From: a virus
Lineage: Duplodnaviria; Heunggongvirae; Uroviricota; Caudoviricetes
Strand: one strand, 5' to 3'
Length of the DNA: 9,487 nt
IMG/VR virus record: IMGVR_UViG_2534681766_000004
Shown: one piece after another, positions 1 through 8,787 of the stretch
Layout: the number at the start of each line of letters is the position of its first letter
How positions within the stretch are numbered: the first letter of the stretch is position 1
Translations under genes and position numbers: made by a program
Notes under the pieces: model-generated
The model's database searches: none
What the model saw: only the letters and a program-made list of their open reading frames with translations
Told to the model about the DNA's origin: nothing

Positions 1-21
1 TGAGGCAGGGAAACGCATGCA

Positions 22-54
22 AAGCCATGCACCTTATCGATGCATGGCTTTTTT
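22..54. terminator. Hairpin terminator just 3' of psu, possibly bidirectional
   Basis: Perfect 10-bp inverted repeat aagccatgca / tgcatggctt (22-31 and 41-50) with a 9-nt loop, followed by TTTTTT at 49-54 on the + strand. On the minus strand it lies just downstream of the psu stop at 85-87. Confidence 0.4.
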
Positions 55-84
55 CAGTAAAAACGGGCGGATTTTCGGGGAATT

Positions 85-642
85 TTACACAGACTGACGT
101 GATGCCAGTTGCGCACTTTTACGCGAAAAAATCATGTTCTGCGCAGGAGTGAATTTTTCACGGCTGTCATCCACCGAAGCCGCGTCAGGCCTGAATCCGA
201 TGGCCGTTAAAATGTCGCTATCCTGTACGGAATAATTAATTTTTTCACCCTTCGCAAGCCAGGACAGAAGGGCTTCACGCAGGGCATCTGTGGCACGCTG
301 TATGGCACAGTTTCGGGCAATGGCCGTCAGCTCACTGTAGCCCATCAGCTCCGGTGCCAGTGCCGCCGCCAGTGCTGTGCCGTGCTGCTGCATAAAATCA
401 TTCAGCCGGTCGCGGATGCTGATGTGCTGAACGGCTTCATGCGAACGAATATAACGACCAGCGGCCTGATTCACCTGCCATTTTCTGACTTCGATAATAT
501 TGCGTAATTCGTCCAGGCGACTGACGTTTCTGCCTTCTCCTGACAGAAGCCGCAGATATTCCTGTTCGGCCGCTGCCAGCTCATTTTTGCGTTGCAGCCA
601 TGCTGCTTTGTTATTCTGACAGGTGTCAAAGGCCTGCTGTAG
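85..642 (-). pseudogene. psu: Polarity suppression protein Psu homolog, 5'-truncated with no in-frame canonical start codon
   Basis: The minus-strand frame is open from 666 down to the stop at 85-87. From codon 640-642 it reads LQQAFDTCQNNKAAWLQRKNELAAAEQEYLRLLSGEGRNVSRLDELRNIIEVRKWQVNQAAGRYIRS..., which I recognise as Psu-like. Upstream of 642 the frame runs into antisense alpha-derived sequence and hits a stop at 667-669 with no ATG/GTG/TTG; the first possible start is the internal GTG at 472-474 (the 129-aa ORF in the track). Confidence 0.55.
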
Positions 643-736
643 CCCCGCAGGAGCGCGACCCGCAGCTTAAGGACAAAATCACCCGCGAGCTGGCGGTCAT
701 CGTGCGTCACCTGATGCAGAAGTTCAGCGACCCGAT
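640..736 (+). repeat. Ectopic 97-bp exact copy of an internal alpha gene segment, overlying the delta/psu junction
   Basis: 640-736 is base-for-base identical to 6399-6495 in the same orientation (compared by hand). The flanking bases differ on both sides: 639 g vs 6398 a, and 737 t vs 6496 g. Confidence 0.9.
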
Positions 737-1212
737 TGTGTTTTTAACCGTACTGGCGGCAGTTCCTGTTTTTCATGCAGGCGTTCTGCCAGTTCGTCCG
801 GTGTGACCGGGCGGACAATGAAGCGGTTGATGGTCTGAAGCGTTTTAAACACCAGACCACAGCCCGGATCCGTGCACACATAAAAACGCTCGGTGACTTC
901 CTGAGACAGACGCCGCGATGTTCTTGACAGCGCAAGGCCTTTACATCTCCGACAACAATATCCGGTAACAAGCATTCTTTTCGGGCGTTTCATGCTACCG
1001 GAGGCTGACGTCAGTGAATCGCGGTATCTCTGTTTGCCTGAAATGTATTCCATTCCTGAATCTTTACAGTCAGAGAAAAAGCTTTCACTCGCTTCAAATG
1101 TCGCAGAGCAATAAATATTCCGGCACTGTGCAATCATTATCTTGGTGCCATCGTCCATGAAATGTGCGCGACGGGTGTGAGCAACATGTCCACACGACGG
1201 GCAGTAAATCAT
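724..1212 (-). CDS. delta: Delta late-gene transcriptional activator (tandem Ogr-like zinc-finger protein), C-terminus altered
   Basis: 162-aa ORF with two Ogr-type C-x2-C-x22-C-x4-C zinc-finger units (MIYCPSCGH...CRNIYC and YCCRRCKG...CTDPGC). Its ATG at 1210-1212 overlaps the sid stop (ATGA). The last codons and the stop (724-736) lie inside the alpha-derived 97-bp segment. Confidence 0.8.
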   Translation of the reverse strand: MIYCPSCGHVAHTRRAHFMDDGTKIMIAQCRNIYCSATFEASESFFSDCKDSGMEYISGKQRYRDSLTSASGSMKRPKRMLVTGYCCRRCKGLALSRTSRRLSQEVTERFYVCTDPGCGLVFKTLQTINRFIVRPVTPDELAERLHEKQELPPVRLKTQSGR

Positions 1213-1943
1213 GACAGCAGTCCTCTGGCCTTAAGCTCTGCTCCCTGCTGGTCTATTTTGTCCTGCCACACCTTGCGCTGTGCCGGTGTGCCTGCCACCT
1301 CATAATCCATGTGCGGGAGTGTTGCCGCTGACAGTCCGGTCAGCCGGAGAACCGGCTCGCCGGTGAGGCTGATTTGCATCTGTTTTATTTTCTGTTCCAG
1401 CGATGATTTCACCTGCTGCATGACAGCTTTATCGGGTGCGACGTAGCCCTGATGCCCGGTGGTGTTGGCGAGCGGATTTTCCTGTACCAGAATGCTCAGA
1501 TGCATTGCCCGGACAAGCGCCTCACAGGTTTCATTCAGGGCGTGTTCCAGCTCATGCTCTGCATACAGACTCAGCAGGTGATGATGTGCCTTCCGGTAGG
1601 CGGTGGCCGTGCTGTCACACGCCCCTTTCAGGCGTTCACGTTCGAAATTCAGCACCACGGCCAGATTGTCATATTCCTGTACCAGCTCCCGGCGTGCCAC
1701 GCGCTCAATGTGGCGCTGTTTCAGCTCGTCGCTCAGGACACCACCGGCTGCACGAAAGGCCGTGCGCCAGTCGTCAGCGTCGTTTCCGTCGGCCTGCGCC
1801 AGCGCATTTTTTTCCTGCTCTGCCCGTTCAATGGCCGTGACGGTCTCATCCATCAGGCGGGCGTTCTCAAGATGGGCGGCTCTGGCCTTTTCCAGTTGTG
1901 CCAGCGCGGGTTGCAGATATTCAGGGATGGTGTTGTCAGACAT
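1209..1943 (-). CDS. sid: Sid external scaffold (capsid size determination) protein
   Basis: Minus-strand ORF. The ATG at 1941-1943 gives 244 aa starting MSDNTIPEYLQPALAQLEKARAAHL..., preceded by a GAGGAG-like Shine-Dalgarno. The protein is coiled-coil-like and alanine/glutamate-rich. The 266-aa version in the ORF track is an upstream in-frame extension. Confidence 0.85.
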   Translation of the reverse strand: MSDNTIPEYLQPALAQLEKARAAHLENARLMDETVTAIERAEQEKNALAQADGNDADDWRTAFRAAGGVLSDELKQRHIERVARRELVQEYDNLAVVLNFERERLKGACDSTATAYRKAHHHLLSLYAEHELEHALNETCEALVRAMHLSILVQENPLANTTGHQGYVAPDKAVMQQVKSSLEQKIKQMQISLTGEPVLRLTGLSAATLPHMDYEVAGTPAQRKVWQDKIDQQGAELKARGLLS

Positions 1944-1968
1944 TTTCCGGCTCCTCGTCACTTCAGGT

Positions 1969-2033
1969 TGAGAAAATTGTGACGTACACCGGACAACAAC
2001 ACGACGCATTGCAGATGTGCCAGCCCTGACACA
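1969..2033 (-). promoter_or_regulatory. Psid-like late promoter with two Delta/Ogr-type TGT-N12-ACA boxes
   Basis: TGT-gacgtacaccgg-ACA at 1978-1995 and TGT-gccagccctgac-ACA at 2016-2033, centres about 38 bp apart, directly upstream of sid on the minus strand. P2/P4 late promoters use TGT-N12-ACA activator sites. Confidence 0.5.
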
Positions 2034-2112
2034 GGAGACTCATCCTCAGACCGGCAAGCCAGGAAAAGGTCGCAGGAAAAACCGGCTTACTGTTTGTTTT
2101 TTTATATTTTAC

Positions 2113-2216
2113 TGTTCACCTCTGTTAACCATAAGAAAAAAGATAAGTAATACAGTAAGTTAAAGGGTGAACAATCGCAGTAATGACTGTTCACCGTCTG
2201 TTCACCACTGTTCACC
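2113..2216. repeat. Replication origin (ori1-like) iteron cluster, alpha-binding TGTTCACC octamers
   Basis: TGTTCACC at 2113-2120, 2188-2195, 2199-2206 and 2209-2216; the variant TGTTAACC at 2123-2130; the reverse-complement GGTGAACA at 2166-2173. The region is AT-rich and non-coding, about 4.8 kb from the crr repeats downstream of alpha. Confidence 0.7.
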
Positions 2217-2351
2217 CGTTGATGGGCTTTTTATGCTGTTTATTACTGTTTATTTTTATTAATTCACTGAAATAAATAAGAAAAAACAATTTGCATTTCA
2301 CTATAAAAAATTCCAGTTCCTTCAGAACCCTTTGAGACCCTTCCAGTCCGG

Positions 2352-2543
2352 ATGGATAAAAAACACACAGCCATTGTAAGGTTGCCGGAACAAATTCCCC
2401 CTGTTGCGTCTGCTGAAAATATTCACAAAATAAAGCGCTACCCGAAGCCGGACGGACTTATCCGGTGCTGTATGGACATTAACGAGGTAGCCCGATGCAA
2501 GCTGTTTTTTCTTCCCCGTCTCCCGCCCCTGTTACGCCACTGA
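2352..2543 (+). CDS. Hypothetical small protein (63 aa); may instead be untranslated leader or immunity region
   Basis: ORF in the track with no convincing Shine-Dalgarno; it overlaps the better-supported downstream gene by 49 bp in another frame. Confidence 0.2.
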   Translation: MDKKHTAIVRLPEQIPPVASAENIHKIKRYPKPDGLIRCCMDINEVARCKLFFLPRLPPLLRH

Positions 2544-2761
2544 TGCCGCTGCCGGACATCACGCAGGAGCGTTTTTTACGTCTGCCGGAAGTGATGCACC
2601 TGTGCGGCCTGTCACGCTCGACCATCTATGAACTCATCCGTAAGGGGGAATTTCCGCCGCAGGGGAGTCTTGGCGGTAAAAATGTGGCCTGGCTGCACTC
2701 TGAAGTCACCGCATGGATGGCCGGGCGCATTGCCGGACGCAAACGGGGGTACGACGCATGA
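2495..2761 (+). CDS. AlpA/Vis-family small helix-turn-helix regulator (88 aa)
   Basis: Contains [28 protein letters not shown], typical of the AlpA / phage excisionase-like HTH family. GAGGT Shine-Dalgarno 6 nt before the ATG at 2495. Its stop overlaps the next ATG (ATGA at 2758-2761). Confidence 0.75.
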
Positions 2762-3348
2762 TGATGCCCGCTCTGCAAAAACTCCCTTTTTCTGGCTTGC
2801 CTTTTTCCGGCATTTGCGGATATAGTTTTTCCGCTGCCGCAAAATCGGCAGCCGGGCGTGAGAACCCGAGTATGTTATCGGCGACATATGACGCGCCATG
2901 CGTCTTTTTTTGTGTCGCAATCAACGCCACAGAGCGCCAGATTATGGTGTGGCGTGTGGTTTGCCGTGCAGGTATGATCCTGTTCGCAATCGCATGTTAT
3001 GCCACTGAGTCAATGGTAGCTCAGGCGGGGCAGCCTCCGGGCTGGCCGGTATCCGATAACGCCGGTATTCTCACCCCCGTCTGGGCTATCGCCATCGAGC
3101 GTGAGAACTCCGGCGATAGCGTCATTTACGCTGTTATCGGAGGTTGCCTTATGGCTACGACCCTTACCCCCTCACACCCTGAATTTGTCTTTGTGTTTGC
3201 GGCTGTCCGTCGCGCAGACCGTCATCCCCGTATCTGTATGCTTCGCACCGTCGCCGGTGATGAACGCAGCGCCCGCCGTTCCCTTGTCCGTGACTATGTG
3301 CTCTCCCTTGCTGCCCGTCTGCCGGTGGTGGAGGTGTCCCGTGCGTAA
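2758..3348 (+). CDS. Hypothetical protein (about 196 aa)
   Basis: ATG at 2758 overlaps the stop of the upstream gene, and its own stop overlaps the next start (GTGCGTAA). The composition of this frame is more protein-like than the overlapping +2 frame (3101-3340), which is P/L/S/C/R/W-rich. Confidence 0.5.
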
Positions 3349-3628
3349 TAAAAAAGCCCCTCAGACCGTCTCAGCGCGTCATGACGCCCGTGAACACCTC
3401 AGCATTGAGGCTTACCATAAGCTCAACCGCGCCAGCGCCGTATCCCGGTTTGTTGGGGGTGATTTGATTCACCGTGAACTCTCCGGCCTGCATCAGCTCT
3501 ACATTCCGCATATTTTCAGCTACCTGAATGAAGATATTGATTTTGTGCTGAATGAACTGAAAGCCAAAGGCCTGTGCCGCGATTTTCTCGCCCAGCAGAA
3601 AGACCGGGGAGACAGGACGCATGTTTGA
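3341..3628 (+). CDS. Hypothetical small protein (95 aa, GTG start); position and size would fit a P4 epsilon-type gene, not verified
   Basis: GGAGG Shine-Dalgarno 7 nt upstream of the GTG at 3341. There is no internal Met, so the start must be non-ATG. Its stop overlaps the next ATG (ATGTTTGA). Confidence 0.5.
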
Positions 3629-4076
3629 TTTTCCCCAGCCCGGTGAGATTTACCGTTCTGCCGGTTTTCCCGATGTGGCCGTGGTCGGCATTCTGGAAGA
3701 CGGTATTCCGTGGGAAATGCCGTACCGCTGCCCGGAAATTGTCTGGAACCCGTACCGCCGTAAATTCAGTATCCTTGTGCGTATCCTCGCCGACGGGCGC
3801 ACCACAGACATCCCGCTGGGGCGTTTTCTGCGGGAATTTACCTGTGACCGTCCTGACCTGTTTAAACGCAGCCCCGTAAACCGGCATGCGGTACTGAAAG
3901 AAATGGCCGGAGACCCGGAATTACAGAAATGGCGGGAGAAATATCTGGATATTTACCCGCAGGACCCTGTTCCGGTCAGCCGGGCGGCACCGGTGGCGCG
4001 GGAATGGCGGGAAATTCCCCGCACGGAGCCTGACCCGGAAACCACCCCGGATAACAGTTACCGCAATTATCTGTAA
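3621..4076 (+). CDS. Hypothetical protein (151 aa), orf151-like
   Basis: ATG at 3621 is coupled to the upstream stop. The length equals the P4 orf151 that sits upstream of alpha in my recollection; function unknown. Confidence 0.6.
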   Translation: MFDFPQPGEIYRSAGFPDVAVVGILEDGIPWEMPYRCPEIVWNPYRRKFSILVRILADGRTTDIPLGRFLREFTCDRPDLFKRSPVNRHAVLKEMAGDPELQKWREKYLDIYPQDPVPVSRAAPVAREWREIPRTEPDPETTPDNSYRNYL

Positions 4077-4211
4077 TTAAAAAACGACCCCCGAAAAATT
4101 AAATGTGCGTATTCGCGCAGGGATACGCACGTCTTCAGGAGACGCAGATATGCCTTATCAGTTAATGCAACCGGCACGGAATGCAGTCATCTGTCACAGG
4201 GAGGAAAACAA

Positions 4212-4532
4212 ATGAAAACACCCTTACCGCCCGTCTTACGCGCTGCCCTTTACCGTCGCGCTGTCGCCTGTGCCTGGCTGACCGTGTGCGAACGTCAGCA
4301 CCGCTACCCGCATCTCACCCTTGAGTCACTGGAGGCGGCCATCGCCGCTGAGCTGGAAGGCTTTTATCTGCGCCAGCACGGTGAGGAAAAAGGGCGTCAG
4401 ATAGCCTGTGCCCTGCTGGAAGATTTAATGGAATCCGGCCCCCTGAAGGCCGCGCCGTCGCTGTCCTTTCTCGGGCTGGTTGTGATGGATGAACTCTGTG
4501 CCCGTCACATAAAAGCGCCGGTACTGCACTGA
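4212..4532 (+). CDS. Hypothetical protein (106 aa)
   Basis: GGGAGG Shine-Dalgarno about 7 nt upstream of the ATG at 4212; it ends 14 bp before the alpha start. Confidence 0.6.
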
Positions 4533-4546
4533 AGGAGAACTACACC

Positions 4547-6880
4547 ATGAAAATGAACGTAACCGCCACCGTCAGTCATGCGCTCGGCCACTGGCCGCGT
4601 ATTCTCCCGGCGCTGGGGATTCAGGTGCTGAAAAACCGTCATCAGCCCTGTCCGGTCTGTGGCGGGAGTGACCGCTTCCGTTTTGATGACAGGGAGGGGC
4701 GCGGCACCTGGTACTGCAATCAGTGTGGTGCCGGTGACGGCCTGAAACTGGTTGAAAAGGTGTTTGGTGTCTCCCCGTCCGACGCGGCCACAAAGGTGGC
4801 TGCCGTGACCGGCAGCCTGCCCCCGGCTGACCCGGCAGTGACGGCTGCCGCCGGTGCTGAAACAGACGCTGCCCGGAAGAACGCCGCCGCACTGGCACAA
4901 ACCCTGATGGCGAAAACCCGTCCCGGAACCGGTAACGCCTACCTGACCCGCAAGGGCTTTCCCGGCCGGGAATGCCGGATGCTGACCGGCACACACAGAG
5001 CCGGTGGCGTGAGCTGGCGTGCCGGTGACCTTGTGGTGCCACTGTATGACGACAGCGGCGAACTGGTTAACCTTCAGTTAATCAGTGCTGACGGCCGTAA
5101 GCGCACCCTGAAAGGCGGGCAGGTCAGGGGCACCTGTCACATCCTTGAAGGACAGAATCAGGCCGGAAAACGTCTGTGGATAGCGGAGGGATACGCGACC
5201 GCACTTACCGTGCATCACCTGACCGGTGAAACGGTGATGGTGGCGCTTTCTTCCGTGAATCTCCTTTCTCTGGCCAGCCTTGCCCGGCAGAAGCATCCGG
5301 CCTGTCAGATTGTCCTTGCTGCTGACCGTGACCTCAGCGGTGACGGCCAGAAAAAAGCCGCCGCAGCCGCAGATGCGTGTGAAGGTGTTGTTGCCCTGCC
5401 GCCGGTCTTCGGTGACTGGAATGATGCCTTCACGCAGTACGGCGGGGAAGCCACCCGTAAGGCCATTTATGATGCCATCCGGCCACCGGCTGAAAGCCCG
5501 TTCGACACCATGAGCGAAGCGGAGTTTTCCGCCATGAGTACCAGCGAAAAGGCCATGCGTATCTATGAGCATTACGGCGAGGCGCTCGCGGTCGATGCCA
5601 ACGGCCAGCTTCTGTCCCGCTATGAAAATGGTGTCTGGAAGGTGCTGCCGCCACAGGACTTTGCCCGGGATGTGGCCGGGCTGTTTCAGCGTCTGCGCGC
5701 GCCGTTCTCCTCCGGGAAGGTGGCCTCCGTGGTGGACACCCTGAAGCTGATTATTCCGCAGCAGGAAGCCCCCTCCCGCCGCCTGATTGGCTTTCGTAAC
5801 GGCGTGCTCGACACGCAGAACGGCACGTTCCACCCGCACAGTCCGTCACACTGGATGCGCACCCTGTGCGATGTGGATTTCACCCCGCCGGTGGACGGTG
5901 AAACGCTGGAGACCCACGCCCCCGCGTTCTGGCGCTGGCTTGACCGTGCCGCCGGTGGCCGTGCGGAAAAACGCGACGTGATTCTGGCCGCACTGTTTAT
6001 GGTGCTGGCAAACCGCTACGACTGGCAGCTCTTTCTGGAGGTGACCGGTCCCGGCGGCAGCGGCAAAAGTATCATGGCCGAAATAGCCACCCTGCTGGCC
6101 GGGGAGGATAACGCCACGTCGGCCACCATTGAGACGCTGGAATCCCCGCGTGAACGTGCCGCGTTAACTGGCTTCTCACTGATACGCCTGCCGGACCAGG
6201 AAAAATGGAGCGGCGACGGAGCCGGACTCAAGGCCATCACCGGCGGCGATGCAGTGTCCGTTGACCCGAAATACCGGGATGCGTACTCCACGCACATCCC
6301 GGCGGTGATTCTGGCCGTGAACAATAACCCGATGCGCTTCACCGACCGCAGCGGCGGCGTGTCACGCCGGCGGGTGATTATTCACTTCCCGGAACAGATA
6401 GCCCCGCAGGAGCGCGACCCGCAGCTTAAGGACAAAATCACCCGCGAGCTGGCGGTCATCGTGCGTCACCTGATGCAGAAGTTCAGCGACCCGATGCTCG
6501 CCCGGTCACTGCTTCAGTCCCAGCAGAACTCAGACGAGGCACTGAACATCAAACGGGATGCCGACCCGACGTTTGATTTTATCGGCTATCTGGAAACCCT
6601 GCCGCAGACCAGCGGCATGTATATGGGGAACGCCAGTATCATCCCGCGTAATTACCGTAAATACCTCTATCACGCCTATCTGGCCTACATGGAGGCAAAC
6701 GGCTACCGGAATGTACTCAGTCTGAAAATGTTCGGGCTGGGGCTACCGGTGATGCTGAAGGAATACGGACTGAATTACGAGAAGCGCCATACCAAACAGG
6801 GGATACAGACCAACCTGACGCTGAAAGAGGAAAGCTACGGCGACTGGCTGCCAAAATGTGACGACCCTGCAACAACCTGA
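4547..6880 (+). CDS. alpha: Alpha protein: bifunctional DNA primase / helicase with C-terminal origin-binding domain
   Basis: 777-aa ORF with an AAGGAG Shine-Dalgarno. N-terminal zinc-binding primase motif CPVCGGSDRFRFDD...WYCNQCG; a Toprim-like segment; Walker A GPGGSGKS; the conserved RRRVIIHFP...DPQLKDKITRELAVIV motif typical of D5/P4-type primase-helicases. Antisense ORFs inside it are GC-rich noise. Confidence 0.95.
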   Translation: MKMNVTATVSHALGHWPRILPALGIQVLKNRHQPCPVCGGSDRFRFDDREGRGTWYCNQCGAGDGLKLVEKVFGVSPSDAATKVAAVTGSLPPADPAVTAAAGAETDAARKNAAALAQTLMAKTRPGTGNAYLTRKGFPGRECRMLTGTHRAGGVSWRAGDLVVPLYDDSGELVNLQLISADGRKRTLKGGQVRGTCHILEGQNQAGKRLWIAEGYATALTVHHLTGETVMVALSSVNLLSLASLARQKHPACQIVLAADRDLSGDGQKKAAAAADACEGVVALPPVFGDWNDAFTQYGGEATRKAIYDAIRPPAESPFDTMSEAEFSAMSTSEKAMRIYEHYGEALAVDANGQLLSRYENGVWKVLPPQDFARDVAGLFQRLRAPFSSGKVASVVDTLKLIIPQQEAPSRRLIGFRNGVLDTQNGTFHPHSPSHWMRTLCDVDFTPPVDGETLETHAPAFWRWLDRAAGGRAEKRDVILAALFMVLANRYDWQLFLEVTGPGGSGKSIMAEIATLLAGEDNATSATIETLESPRERAALTGFSLIRLPDQEKWSGDGAGLKAITGGDAVSVDPKYRDAYSTHIPAVILAVNNNPMRFTDRSGGVSRRRVIIHFPEQIAPQERDPQLKDKITRELAVIVRHLMQKFSDPMLARSLLQSQQNSDEALNIKRDADPTFDFIGYLETLPQTSGMYMGNASIIPRNYRKYLYHAYLAYMEANGYRNVLSLKMFGLGLPVMLKEYGLNYEKRHTKQGIQTNLTLKEESYGDWLPKCDDPATT
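6399..6495 (+). repeat. Native copy, inside alpha, of the 97-bp segment duplicated at 640-736
   Basis: Identical to 640-736. Here it is in frame within alpha and encodes a conserved primase-helicase motif (APQERDPQLKDKITRELAVIVRHLMQKFSDP), so this is the original and the copy at 640-736 is the ectopic one. Confidence 0.9.
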
Positions 6881-6896
6881 CCCTCATGACTCATCT

Positions 6897-6921
6897 GACC
6901 GGCATCTGCCGGTCTTTTTTT
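6897..6921 (+). terminator. Rho-independent terminator of the alpha operon
   Basis: Stem gaccggc (6897-6903) pairs with gccggtc (6908-6914) around a 4-nt loop, followed by TTTTTTT at 6915-6921, 17 bp after the alpha stop. Confidence 0.6.
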
Positions 6922-6939
6922 ATCCCGATATCCCCCGCA

Positions 6940-7240
6940 GGTGAACAATCCACTGTTCACCCTTCACCGTATATTCACCCGTTATCATACTGAAATTAAA
7001 AGAGAAAAACGAAAGGTGAACAGTGTGAACAATCAAATCAAAAAAAACTTTTTTTCTCCCTGTGTGATTTCAGTACGGGGGATTAATCACCGGTATGAGT
7101 CACACCGGCAGAATGCCGGAGGTGAAGAATCGAATGTTCACCCTTCACCCATTATTCACCACCTATCATACTGAAATAAAAGGAGAAAACAGAAAGGTGA
7201 ACAGTGTGAACAGTTCTTTCGAAAAAAAAATTTTTTCCTG
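6940..7240. repeat. crr (cis replication region): two direct repeats of about 108 bp carrying TGTTCACC / GGTGAACA iterons
   Basis: Repeat 1 (about 6953-7062) and repeat 2 (about 7134-7240) align closely (..tgttcacccttcacc..tcatactgaaat..aaaggtgaacagtgtgaaca..poly-A/T). Each carries several octamers matching the ori iterons. The 77-aa ORF at 6941-7174 is a translation of these repeats. Confidence 0.75.
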
Positions 7241-7289
7241 TACGATATAGCATCAATCCAAGTAAAAATGCGCTTTCATTTCACATTAA

Positions 7290-7400
7290 CTTACAGCCAT
7301 TGGTATACGATTAGGTATACGCACAAAAAATGAATTAAACAAAATCATTAAAAATCAAAGCAATACAATATTTATTCAAACTCCGCCAGCCAATATTGAT
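7290..7400. other. Possible attP-like region (AT-rich, short direct repeats, tRNA 3'-end-like stretch)
   Basis: Tandem GGTATACG at 7302-7309 and 7314-7321; repeated AAATCA; ttcaaactccgccagcc at 7377-7393 loosely resembles a tRNA T-loop/acceptor 3' half. Position between crr and int is where attP lies in P4. Weak and unverified. Confidence 0.2.
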
Positions 7401-7460: not shown

Positions 7461-7515
7461 CGTCTATTGTAGTCTAGTGAGAATTGCTGAGAACTACGAG
7501 TTATGGCACCCTGAA

Positions 7516-7553
7516 TGGGACCCACGAAGATGGGTCCTAAAATCGAGGGTCCC
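7516..7553 (+). promoter_or_regulatory. Inverted GGGACCC / GGGTCCC repeats in the int leader, overlapping its Shine-Dalgarno
   Basis: gggaccc at 7517-7523, gggtcct at 7532-7537 (6 of 7) and gggtccc at 7547-7553. The last overlaps the GAGGG Shine-Dalgarno of int, so pairing could sequester the ribosome-binding site or form a protein-binding site. Confidence 0.3.
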
Positions 7554-7557
7554 AAAC

Positions 7558-8787
7558 ATGGCCAAAATCGCTAAGAAGCTCACTGACACTGAAATCAAAA
7601 GCACCAACCCTGCCGAAAAAGAGGTTAACCTTTTTGACGGCGATGGTTTGCTGTTGCGAATCGCTCCCCTGGCGAAGGGAGGGAAGAAAAATTGGTATTT
7701 CAGATATGCAGTGCCTGTGACCAAAAAGCGAACTAAGGTGAGCTTAGGAACCTATCCTCACCTTACACTTGCGAAGGCACGAGCTTTACGTGATGAATAC
7801 TTGTCGTTGCTTACAAATGGTATAGACCCCCAAGTTCATAACAACCAAAAAGCCAATGCACTGAAAGATGCCACGGAACATACATTTCAAGCAGTAGCCA
7901 AGAAGTGGCTTGATGAGAAAGTCAAAACGTCAGGCATCTCCCAAGATCATGCTAACGACATCTGGCGAAGCCTAGAGAGAAATATCTTTTCCACATTGGG
8001 TGATACCCCAATTAAGGAGATTCGCCCTAAAATGCTTAAACAGCATTTAGAACCCATAGAAAAACGAGGGGTCCTTGAAACACTTCGCCGCATCATATCC
8101 CGCCTGAATGAAATTTTCCGCTATGCAGCAACAGAAGAACTCATAGAATTCAACCCGGCAGACAACCTGGGGCAACGGTTCAGCAAGCCAAAAAAACAGA
8201 ATATGCCAGCATTACCCCCTTCCGAACTCCCTCGCTTCTTGGTTGCTCTAAACAATGCTTCTATCCGTTTGGAAACAAGGCTACTGATTGAGTGGCAACT
8301 TCTCACATGGGTTCGCCCAGGTGAAGCTGTTCGCACAAGATGGTCAGATATTGATATTGAAACTGGCATGTGGAACATCCCGGCGGAGTTTATGAAAATG
8401 AAGAAGCCTCACAAAGTTCCACTGAGCAAAGAAGCTTTGCGAGTTTTGGATTTAATGAAAGTCATCAGCGGGCATAGAGAGTGGGTGTTCCCCAGTATCA
8501 AAGCTCCACTCAATCACATGCATGAACAAACAGCTAATGCGGCCATAATCCGTATGGGTTTCGGAGGTGAGCTTGTAGCTCACGGTATGCGATCCATTGC
8601 TAGAACGGCTGCTGAGGAGTCTGGCAAGTTTAGGACTGATGTCTTAGAAGCCGCCCTTGCCCACTCGAAGAAAGATGAAATAATTGCAGCCTACAATCGT
8701 GCAGAGTATCTCACTGAACGGGTGGTTCTCATGCAATGGTGGAGTGACTATGTTTCGTCTCAAAAATGCAAAGTTATTGCCGCATAA
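7558..8787 (+). CDS. int: Tyrosine site-specific integrase, P4 family (N-terminal arm-binding domain plus C-terminal catalytic domain)
   Basis: 409 aa from the ATG at 7558 (MAKIAKKLTDTEIK...) with a GAGGG Shine-Dalgarno. N-terminal arm-binding-like region (GLLLRI...KNWYFRY...LGTYP); catalytic signatures VRPGEAVRTRWSDID, HGMRSIART (HxxR) and AAYNRAEY (nucleophile Tyr). The upstream in-frame extension from 7477 begins right after a stop and is not credible. Confidence 0.9.
   Translation: MAKIAKKLTDTEIKSTNPAEKEVNLFDGDGLLLRIAPLAKGGKKNWYFRYAVPVTKKRTKVSLGTYPHLTLAKARALRDEYLSLLTNGIDPQVHNNQKANALKDATEHTFQAVAKKWLDEKVKTSGISQDHANDIWRSLERNIFSTLGDTPIKEIRPKMLKQHLEPIEKRGVLETLRRIISRLNEIFRYAATEELIEFNPADNLGQRFSKPKKQNMPALPPSELPRFLVALNNASIRLETRLLIEWQLLTWVRPGEAVRTRWSDIDIETGMWNIPAEFMKMKKPHKVPLSKEALRVLDLMKVISGHREWVFPSIKAPLNHMHEQTANAAIIRMGFGGELVAHGMRSIARTAAEESGKFRTDVLEAALAHSKKDEIIAAYNRAEYLTERVVLMQWWSDYVSSQKCKVIAA

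Follow-up and report, generated by a model that had tools for sequence, protein, structure and literature searches.

The closest described counterpart of the gene considered here is Psu of the satellite P4 (NP_042044.1; PDB 3RX6, 4DVD and 8PEU), a protein of 190 residues encoded at the end of the sid–delta–psu operon, just before cos. Cryo-EM places its contacts with Rho at the coiled-coil tip of helices α1 and α2 (R43), at the start of α2 (D49 and E56) and in helix α7 (PMC11718236). The N-terminus of Psu is reported to be needed for structural integrity, with the L21P and E56K variants being defective (PMC3737525), and helix 7 of the wild-type protein is inactive on its own (PMC8141534). The psu copy described below occupies the same place in a P4-like element and keeps codons 6–190 but, unlike P4 psu, has no ATG, no ribosome site and no codons 1–5, and the stop that closes its frame upstream lies inside alpha-derived sequence.

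The window analysed, 9,487 bp in length, is one whole draft contig (APXD01000093.1, assembly GCA_000356325.2) of Escherichia coli 2730350. Its positions 1–7236 share 97–98% DNA identity with P4, and the core set is called in P4 order (sid, delta, AlpA, ASH, Derepression, DUF5375 and the 777-aa primase), with psu present but truncated. By this core gene set the element is a P4-like satellite prophage and, psu aside, the remainder looks intact. On the minus strand lie sid (1209–1943; 244 aa, intact), the first gene of the sid–delta–psu late operon, delta (724–1212) and the psu remnant (85–641), whose limits come from alignment to P4 and to the solved Psu chain; the contig ends 84 nt beyond psu. 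The sid frame is open further upstream, to an ATG at 2009 (1209–2009, 266 aa), while annotations and P4 start the gene at 1943. Immunity and early genes lie between sid and the resident alpha gene (4547–6880, plus strand), which encodes an intact primase-helicase of 777 aa and includes 6399–6495, the segment discussed below. Two crr repeats follow at 6935–7237; they are direct repeats of about 122 nt each (6935–7056 and 7116–7237), 82% identical and carrying TGTTCACC-type motifs, and their counterpart in P4 is the cis replication region of record X05623. The integrase gene at 7477–8787 is part of a neighbouring CP4-57-like island, the same tandem layout being found in E. coli ATCC 43896. A tRNA scan of the window detected no tRNA genes. 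The literature retrieved for the strain number consisted of unrelated papers.

Translated on the minus strand from 780 to 85, the window gives the end of Delta (…LKTQSGR, then a stop), three further short stretches that each end in a stop (TSASGDAR, PPARG and FCP) and then AAGRAPAG-LQQAFDTC… through to the Psu stop, the last stretch reading AAGRAPAGLQQAFDTC…SRQSV. The Psu frame is open from the TAA at 669–667 to the stop at 87–85, and homology to P4 starts at Leu6 (codon 642–640). A sequence-only reading of this stretch had described a Psu-like frame that is clean from 640–642 to the stop at 85–87 and that continues upstream into antisense alpha-derived sequence, meeting a stop at 667–669 with no ATG, GTG or TTG on the way. 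The translation bears this out: the TAA at 667–669 (minus strand), fourth and last of the in-frame stops on the way from delta to psu, closes the frame, no ATG, GTG or TTG occurs in the psu frame between 666 and 475, and 640–736 is an exact 97-nt copy of 6399–6495. The alignment to P4 Psu (190 aa) that the same reading had called for finds codons 6–190 present and codons 1–5 missing, with three amino-acid differences between the remnant and P4 Psu (A144V, T152A and V159A).

Alignment to P4 and to the prophage of E. coli E3 is collinear as far as …CTGCTGTA and resumes at GATTGTGTTTTT…; the 111 bp that normal elements have between these points are replaced in the window by 92 bp of alpha sequence. 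The lost segment comprises the last six delta codons and the delta stop, a 73-bp intergenic region carrying the palindrome GCCGGT-TAAC-ACCGGC, the psu ribosome site and psu codons 1–5. In its place stands the alpha-derived stump at 640–736 (plus strand), consisting of the 92 nt together with TA and GAT microhomologies; it is a 100% direct repeat of alpha codons 618–650 and lies antisense to delta and psu. At the left joint (640–641) psu codon 5/6 meets alpha 6399 at TA, and at the right joint (734–736) alpha 6495 meets the end of delta codon 160 at GAT. With the whole 111-bp segment swapped, a point mutation or single-base sequencing error at the ATG is ruled out as the cause of the missing start; the sequence-only reading had allowed for a sequencing correction that would restore an ATG, and the replacement of 111 bp by 92 bp contradicts this.

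The same replacement shortens Delta, a consequence that the earlier reading overlooked. Delta has 162 aa here and 166 aa normally; its residues 1–160 are as in relatives, after which the loss of the last six codons turns YSLRLE into GR and a stop within the stump. Its zinc fingers match the Ogr/Delta activator family (PF04606) in two stretches (77.7 bits). Shorter Delta homologues share residues 1–40 and 120–160 with P4 Delta, their conserved block ending at residue 160 (PMC11718236), and because this block is kept here, the truncated Delta is probably still functional.

Although delta and psu now stand in the same frame, a delta–psu fusion or read-through product was rejected on account of the four stops between them; since these stops and more than 120 nt lie after delta, translational coupling to starts further downstream is also not expected. 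The first canonical in-frame start is the GTG at 472–474 (minus strand; Val62 of Psu), which would give 129 aa and is the call made in GenBank (ENA81711.1). The sequence-only reading had named this GTG as the only way to make a product and had seen no obvious Shine–Dalgarno sequence before it; the second part stands, the best anti-Shine–Dalgarno pairing being −1.5 kcal/mol, whereas the first overlooked the in-frame CTG codons, of which that at 595–597 (minus strand; Leu21 of Psu) is annotated as the start of a RefSeq-type product of 170 aa (WP_050561483.1). For this CTG the best pairing is −1.0 kcal/mol, and we rejected both annotated sites as usable starts for want of meaningful pairing. A near-cognate scan of the whole psu frame placed the best pairings (−4 to −5 kcal/mol) at CTG codons throughout, and CTG is a very poor initiator in E. 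coli. The public records thus conflict, with 170 aa from the CTG in one and 129 aa from the GTG in the other, and neither flags a pseudogene; both calls are annotation guesses. Low-level initiation at the CTG or the GTG is possible.

By sequence, the locus is a member of the Psu family. The open frame from 666 to 88 scores 295.8 bits against the Pfam Psu profile PF07455 (cut-off 27.4; E = 1e-88) and covers profile positions 1–181 of 182, and the solved Psu chain (190 aa) aligns to it from residue 5. The 129-aa product begins only at profile position 58 of 182. Because both profile and structure include the N-terminus ahead of the GTG, full-length homologues do not start at 474, as the sequence-only reading had conceded they might. 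The conceivable products would lack 20 (CTG) or 61 (GTG) N-terminal residues. R43, D49 and E56 and the helix α7 residues P171, A172, Q173 and K180 are all encoded in the psu frame; R43, D49 and E56 lie upstream of the sole canonical start, and the part absent from the 129-aa product takes in helix α1, the coiled-coil tip and the start of α2, these three residues included.

Might a shortened Psu, of 170 aa from the CTG at 597 or 129 aa from the GTG at 474, nevertheless be made and still act on Rho or the capsid, so that function is reduced and not lost? The frame is open and otherwise undamaged, P171, A172, Q173 and K180 of helix α7 are intact, and both products are annotated in public records. 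We consider this very improbable, given two start sites that lack Shine–Dalgarno pairing, the poor initiation at CTG and the four stops and more than 120 nt that separate both sites from delta. What is known of the protein argues in the same direction: the protein depends on its N-terminus for stability and is defective when changed to L21P or E56K (PMC3737525), R43, D49 and E56 contact Rho (PMC11718236), and isolated wild-type helix 7 is inactive (PMC8141534). Loss of Psu function, which the sequence-only reading had put forward as a possibility, is on these grounds the best inference for the locus and a well supported one, with no start in place and with the N-terminal helix and Rho-contact residues lying ahead of the GTG. 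Polarity suppression and capsid decoration by this psu copy have most likely been lost. As there is no translatable full-length gene (about 190 aa with its own start), the locus is filed, on its sequence, as a psu pseudogene in a P4-like satellite.

A look-up of public assemblies with the exact 129-aa product returned other loci. Among them is L004 (GCA_049985905.1; JAAPSF010000016.1, a 109-kb contig), which stands for a group with five similar places. It has the window's left joint between psu codon 6 and alpha 6399, at the same TA and without a base of difference, and it matches window positions 1–736 at 100% identity. In L004 the alpha tail runs on past 6495 to its stop and is followed by crr and a different att flank beside an MFS transporter gene, whereas the window switches after 6495 to delta and then has a complete delta-to-alpha block. 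L004 is a plain deletion remnant that has lost about 5.8 kb, with delta, sid, the immunity region and the 5' part of alpha gone. It lies at the site, and with the hotspot, of intact elements of the L007/L014 type; its psu and hotspot side shows no mismatch to L007, the alpha tail with its flank is 98.9% identical to L014, and by these matches it is derived from an L007/L014-type element at that site. The psu–int hotspot of L004 and L007 holds a pair of genes, one DprA-like and the other of HAD/phosphoribosyltransferase type.

A plus-strand open reading frame at 600–806 of the window joins an antisense-psu ATG, alpha codons 618–650 and antisense delta into a chimeric product of 68 aa, annotated as hypothetical protein EC2730350_2706 but probably no real gene. 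From the same ATG, the frame in L004 runs on to the alpha stop and gives a 173-aa product with a Pox_D5 match. A protein search with the 68-aa product for this 173-aa fusion returned only the window's own entry and two weak matches.

To the right of the stump the closest complete-genome relative of the window is the prophage at ssrA of ATCC 43896 (NZ_CP024278.1), which differs from window positions 737–7390 by 6 mismatches, the first at 1193 (99.9% identity); the likeness spans about 6.6 kb from delta to crr, with 6 mismatches, and takes in the tandem CP4-57-like integrase. To the left, over window positions 1–641, the same prophage has 11 mismatches in 641. L007-type elements show 0–1 differences to the window left of the stump and differ from it on the right from position 748. 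Because the parental match switches at the stump (within 641–748), the contig, as judged from these alignments, is a two-parent mosaic, of L004 type up to alpha 6495 and of ATCC 43896 type from delta codon 160. Unlike the window, the ATCC 43896 prophage retains a normal psu of 190 aa, with the usual 111-bp junction next to it and a Delta of 166 aa. The mismatch at window position 1193 falls in Delta codon 7, where ATCC 43896 has Ser for the second Cys of the first CxxC zinc-finger motif and the window has Cys. In the psu–int hotspot of ATCC 43896 (2659–4976 of locus L020) lies a pair of genes for a DUF4435 protein and an AAA-ATPase, ahead of the tandem CP4-57-like integrase. Since the stump is also 100% identical to the window's own alpha, the donor cannot be read from that sequence itself; given the mosaic, the stump was most likely inherited from a separate, already-deleted satellite and not copied from the resident alpha.

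The two joints differ in how widely they are recorded. The left joint is corroborated in at least one other draft assembly. For the right joint and the 162-aa Delta the sole source is one 9.5-kb draft contig, with no Logan-derived record. BLAST of 5,426 complete E. coli genomes detected neither joint, and exact-pattern scans of GTDB representative genomes, IMG/VR and JGI metagenomes were likewise negative for both. The absence of the right joint from these collections fits a recent, rare event.

With somewhat better than even confidence, we propose that psu became a 5'-truncated pseudogene in two steps, the formation of a deletion remnant and the joining of that remnant to a second satellite. 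In the first, which the comparison with L004 shows, a deletion of about 5.8 kb at the 2-bp TA microhomology fused psu codon 6 to alpha codon 618 in some P4-like prophage; the start of psu and most of alpha were lost, along with delta, sid and the immunity region. In the second, which we infer, the psu::alpha end of such a remnant would have been cut off after 92–97 nt of the alpha tail and joined there to delta, at its 3' end, in another element, with the 3-bp GAT microhomology at the joint; the recipient would have been a P4-like element at ssrA, of the ATCC 43896 type and otherwise intact. Break repair in which the remnant was the ectopic template could have served as the route, as could homology-facilitated illegitimate recombination. 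The resulting late transcript would run through sid, the 162-aa delta, four stops, an untranslated antisense alpha stump and a psu without a start, and would yield no full-length Psu; any product of 170 or 129 aa would be without helix α1 and the coiled-coil tip, on which the knotted dimer and the contacts with Rho depend.

Transformation studies in bacteria have brought to light both homology-facilitated illegitimate recombination and microhomology-mediated end joining. The window resembles the former in having a left match of at least 641 nt that could have served as an anchor and a 3-bp microhomology at the other joint, and in the short gain of foreign sequence with loss of recipient DNA. 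It differs in that the donor would be a sister satellite remnant and not unrelated DNA, and in that the homologous crossover would lie outside the contig. It counts against our account that the left homologous crossover which gene conversion predicts is not visible, the contig ending 84 nt past psu. A more far-reaching version of the two-step account, which we think improbable, is that the remnant's psu::alpha scar was transplanted into an otherwise intact satellite by in vivo recombination of two resident P4-like elements, disabling its anti-Rho and capsid-decoration gene and leaving 97 nt of perfect alpha antisense in the late operon that could, once the late promoter is active, pair with alpha mRNA and damp replication late in infection. 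Separately, loss of the host-toxic Psu may be tolerated or even favoured in resident satellites that are kept for their defence hotspot.

Two other origins have to be weighed against the two-step account. Strain 2730350 could have two elements at different loci, a remnant of the L004 type and a normal satellite of the ATCC 43896 type, which the draft assembler butt-joined: the remnant's junction contig would have ended a read length or k−1 into the shared alpha repeat and been attached to a contig whose start lies in delta. In that case psu would still be a truncated remnant but would not lie beside delta, and Delta would have its normal 166 aa. In favour of such a misjoin, the mosaic is clean and changes parent exactly at the stump. 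The length of the stump, 92–97 nt, is about that of a contig overhang into a repeat, being near k−1 or the read length of 100-nt Illumina assemblies, and counts against our second step, as does the derivation of the right joint from a single draft contig, with no match to the joint or to the 162-aa Delta in any collection searched. Multiple P4-like copies per genome are common, moreover (a median of 2 matching places, up to 8). We nevertheless regard a chimeric assembly as rather unlikely. With only GAT common to both sides, no de Bruijn or overlap path leads from alpha 6495 to delta 737; nothing explains why a contig of the intact element should begin at 734–737, where the sequence is unique apart from P4-like copies; and a 3-bp microhomology is expected, by our own calculation, in only about 5% of random butt joints. 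The assembler also resolved both 97-nt copies within one contig, and GenBank has one 129-aa Psu accession only for strain 2730350. The microhomology, the missing assembly-graph path and the unexplained contig start favour real illegitimate recombination at the right joint, to which we give a slightly better than even chance. Whether that joint is real or misjoined, the psu copy is truncated, because the left joint is seen in other assemblies.

The other origin involves a single element, in which a nascent strand jumped 5.7 kb to the element's own alpha, copied 92 nt and returned, the L004 type arising afterwards by recombination between the 97-nt repeats. The complete identity of the stump to the resident alpha at 6399–6495, in direct orientation, and the microhomology at both joints are compatible with such a template switch, and the L004 joint is just what a crossover of one 97-nt repeat with the other would leave behind. 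The two-parent mosaic disfavours it: the stump's flanks belong to different lineages (L004/L007 on the left, ATCC 43896 on the right) with the switch confined to 641–748, so that a prior recombination breakpoint would, by chance, have to lie no more than about 100 bp from the stump, a coincidence of about 1%. L004, moreover, lies at another att site, with a psu and hotspot side and an alpha tail and flank of the types found there, and similarity between the lost and gained segments that might have guided a switch is not significant, with 783 of 2,000 shuffles scoring as high. A template switch within one element is for these reasons highly unlikely, and the joining of a remnant to a second satellite remains the reading that we prefer.

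The look-up by truncated protein also brought to light 1-bp psu frameshifts in other draft or Logan assemblies. Deletion of an A in codon 12 (GACACC to GACCC, at about 2990 in locus coordinates) occurs at four loci (L007, L009, L011 and L012), and loss of a T in codon 10 at two (L006 and L014). We do not read these as a general trend towards recurrent psu inactivation: the sample was selected by the truncated product itself, and the codon 12 deletion, the commonest frameshift, was found in 0 of the 967 complete E. coli genomes holding that stretch, so the survey gives no evidence of widespread psu loss. A different truncation is seen at 2930–3000 of locus L005, where homology to Psu runs from about codon 41 and follows directly on an integrase gene and unrelated sequence. 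In metagenome contigs L016–L019, a Psu of 170 aa has a true ATG in place of Leu21, and the DNA upstream is unrelated to delta or to the P4 intergenic region; this variant may be another remnant or a differently organised element.

The main value of these observations lies in annotation. A pseudogene label is due for the public 129-aa and 170-aa ‘polarity suppression protein’ records at this locus, and satellites that are counted as complete by a Psu domain match may lack a working psu. Should the right joint prove not to be real, the contig would serve as a cautionary case of chimeric assembly among repeated satellites. If it is real, it would show, in a case from nature, how sister satellites that share a genome exchange damage through illegitimate recombination, and would provide a natural psu-null but otherwise intact P4-like element for gauging the part that Psu plays in satellite transfer. 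The biology itself is that of ordinary prophage gene decay, with a modestly interesting history of recombination between satellites.
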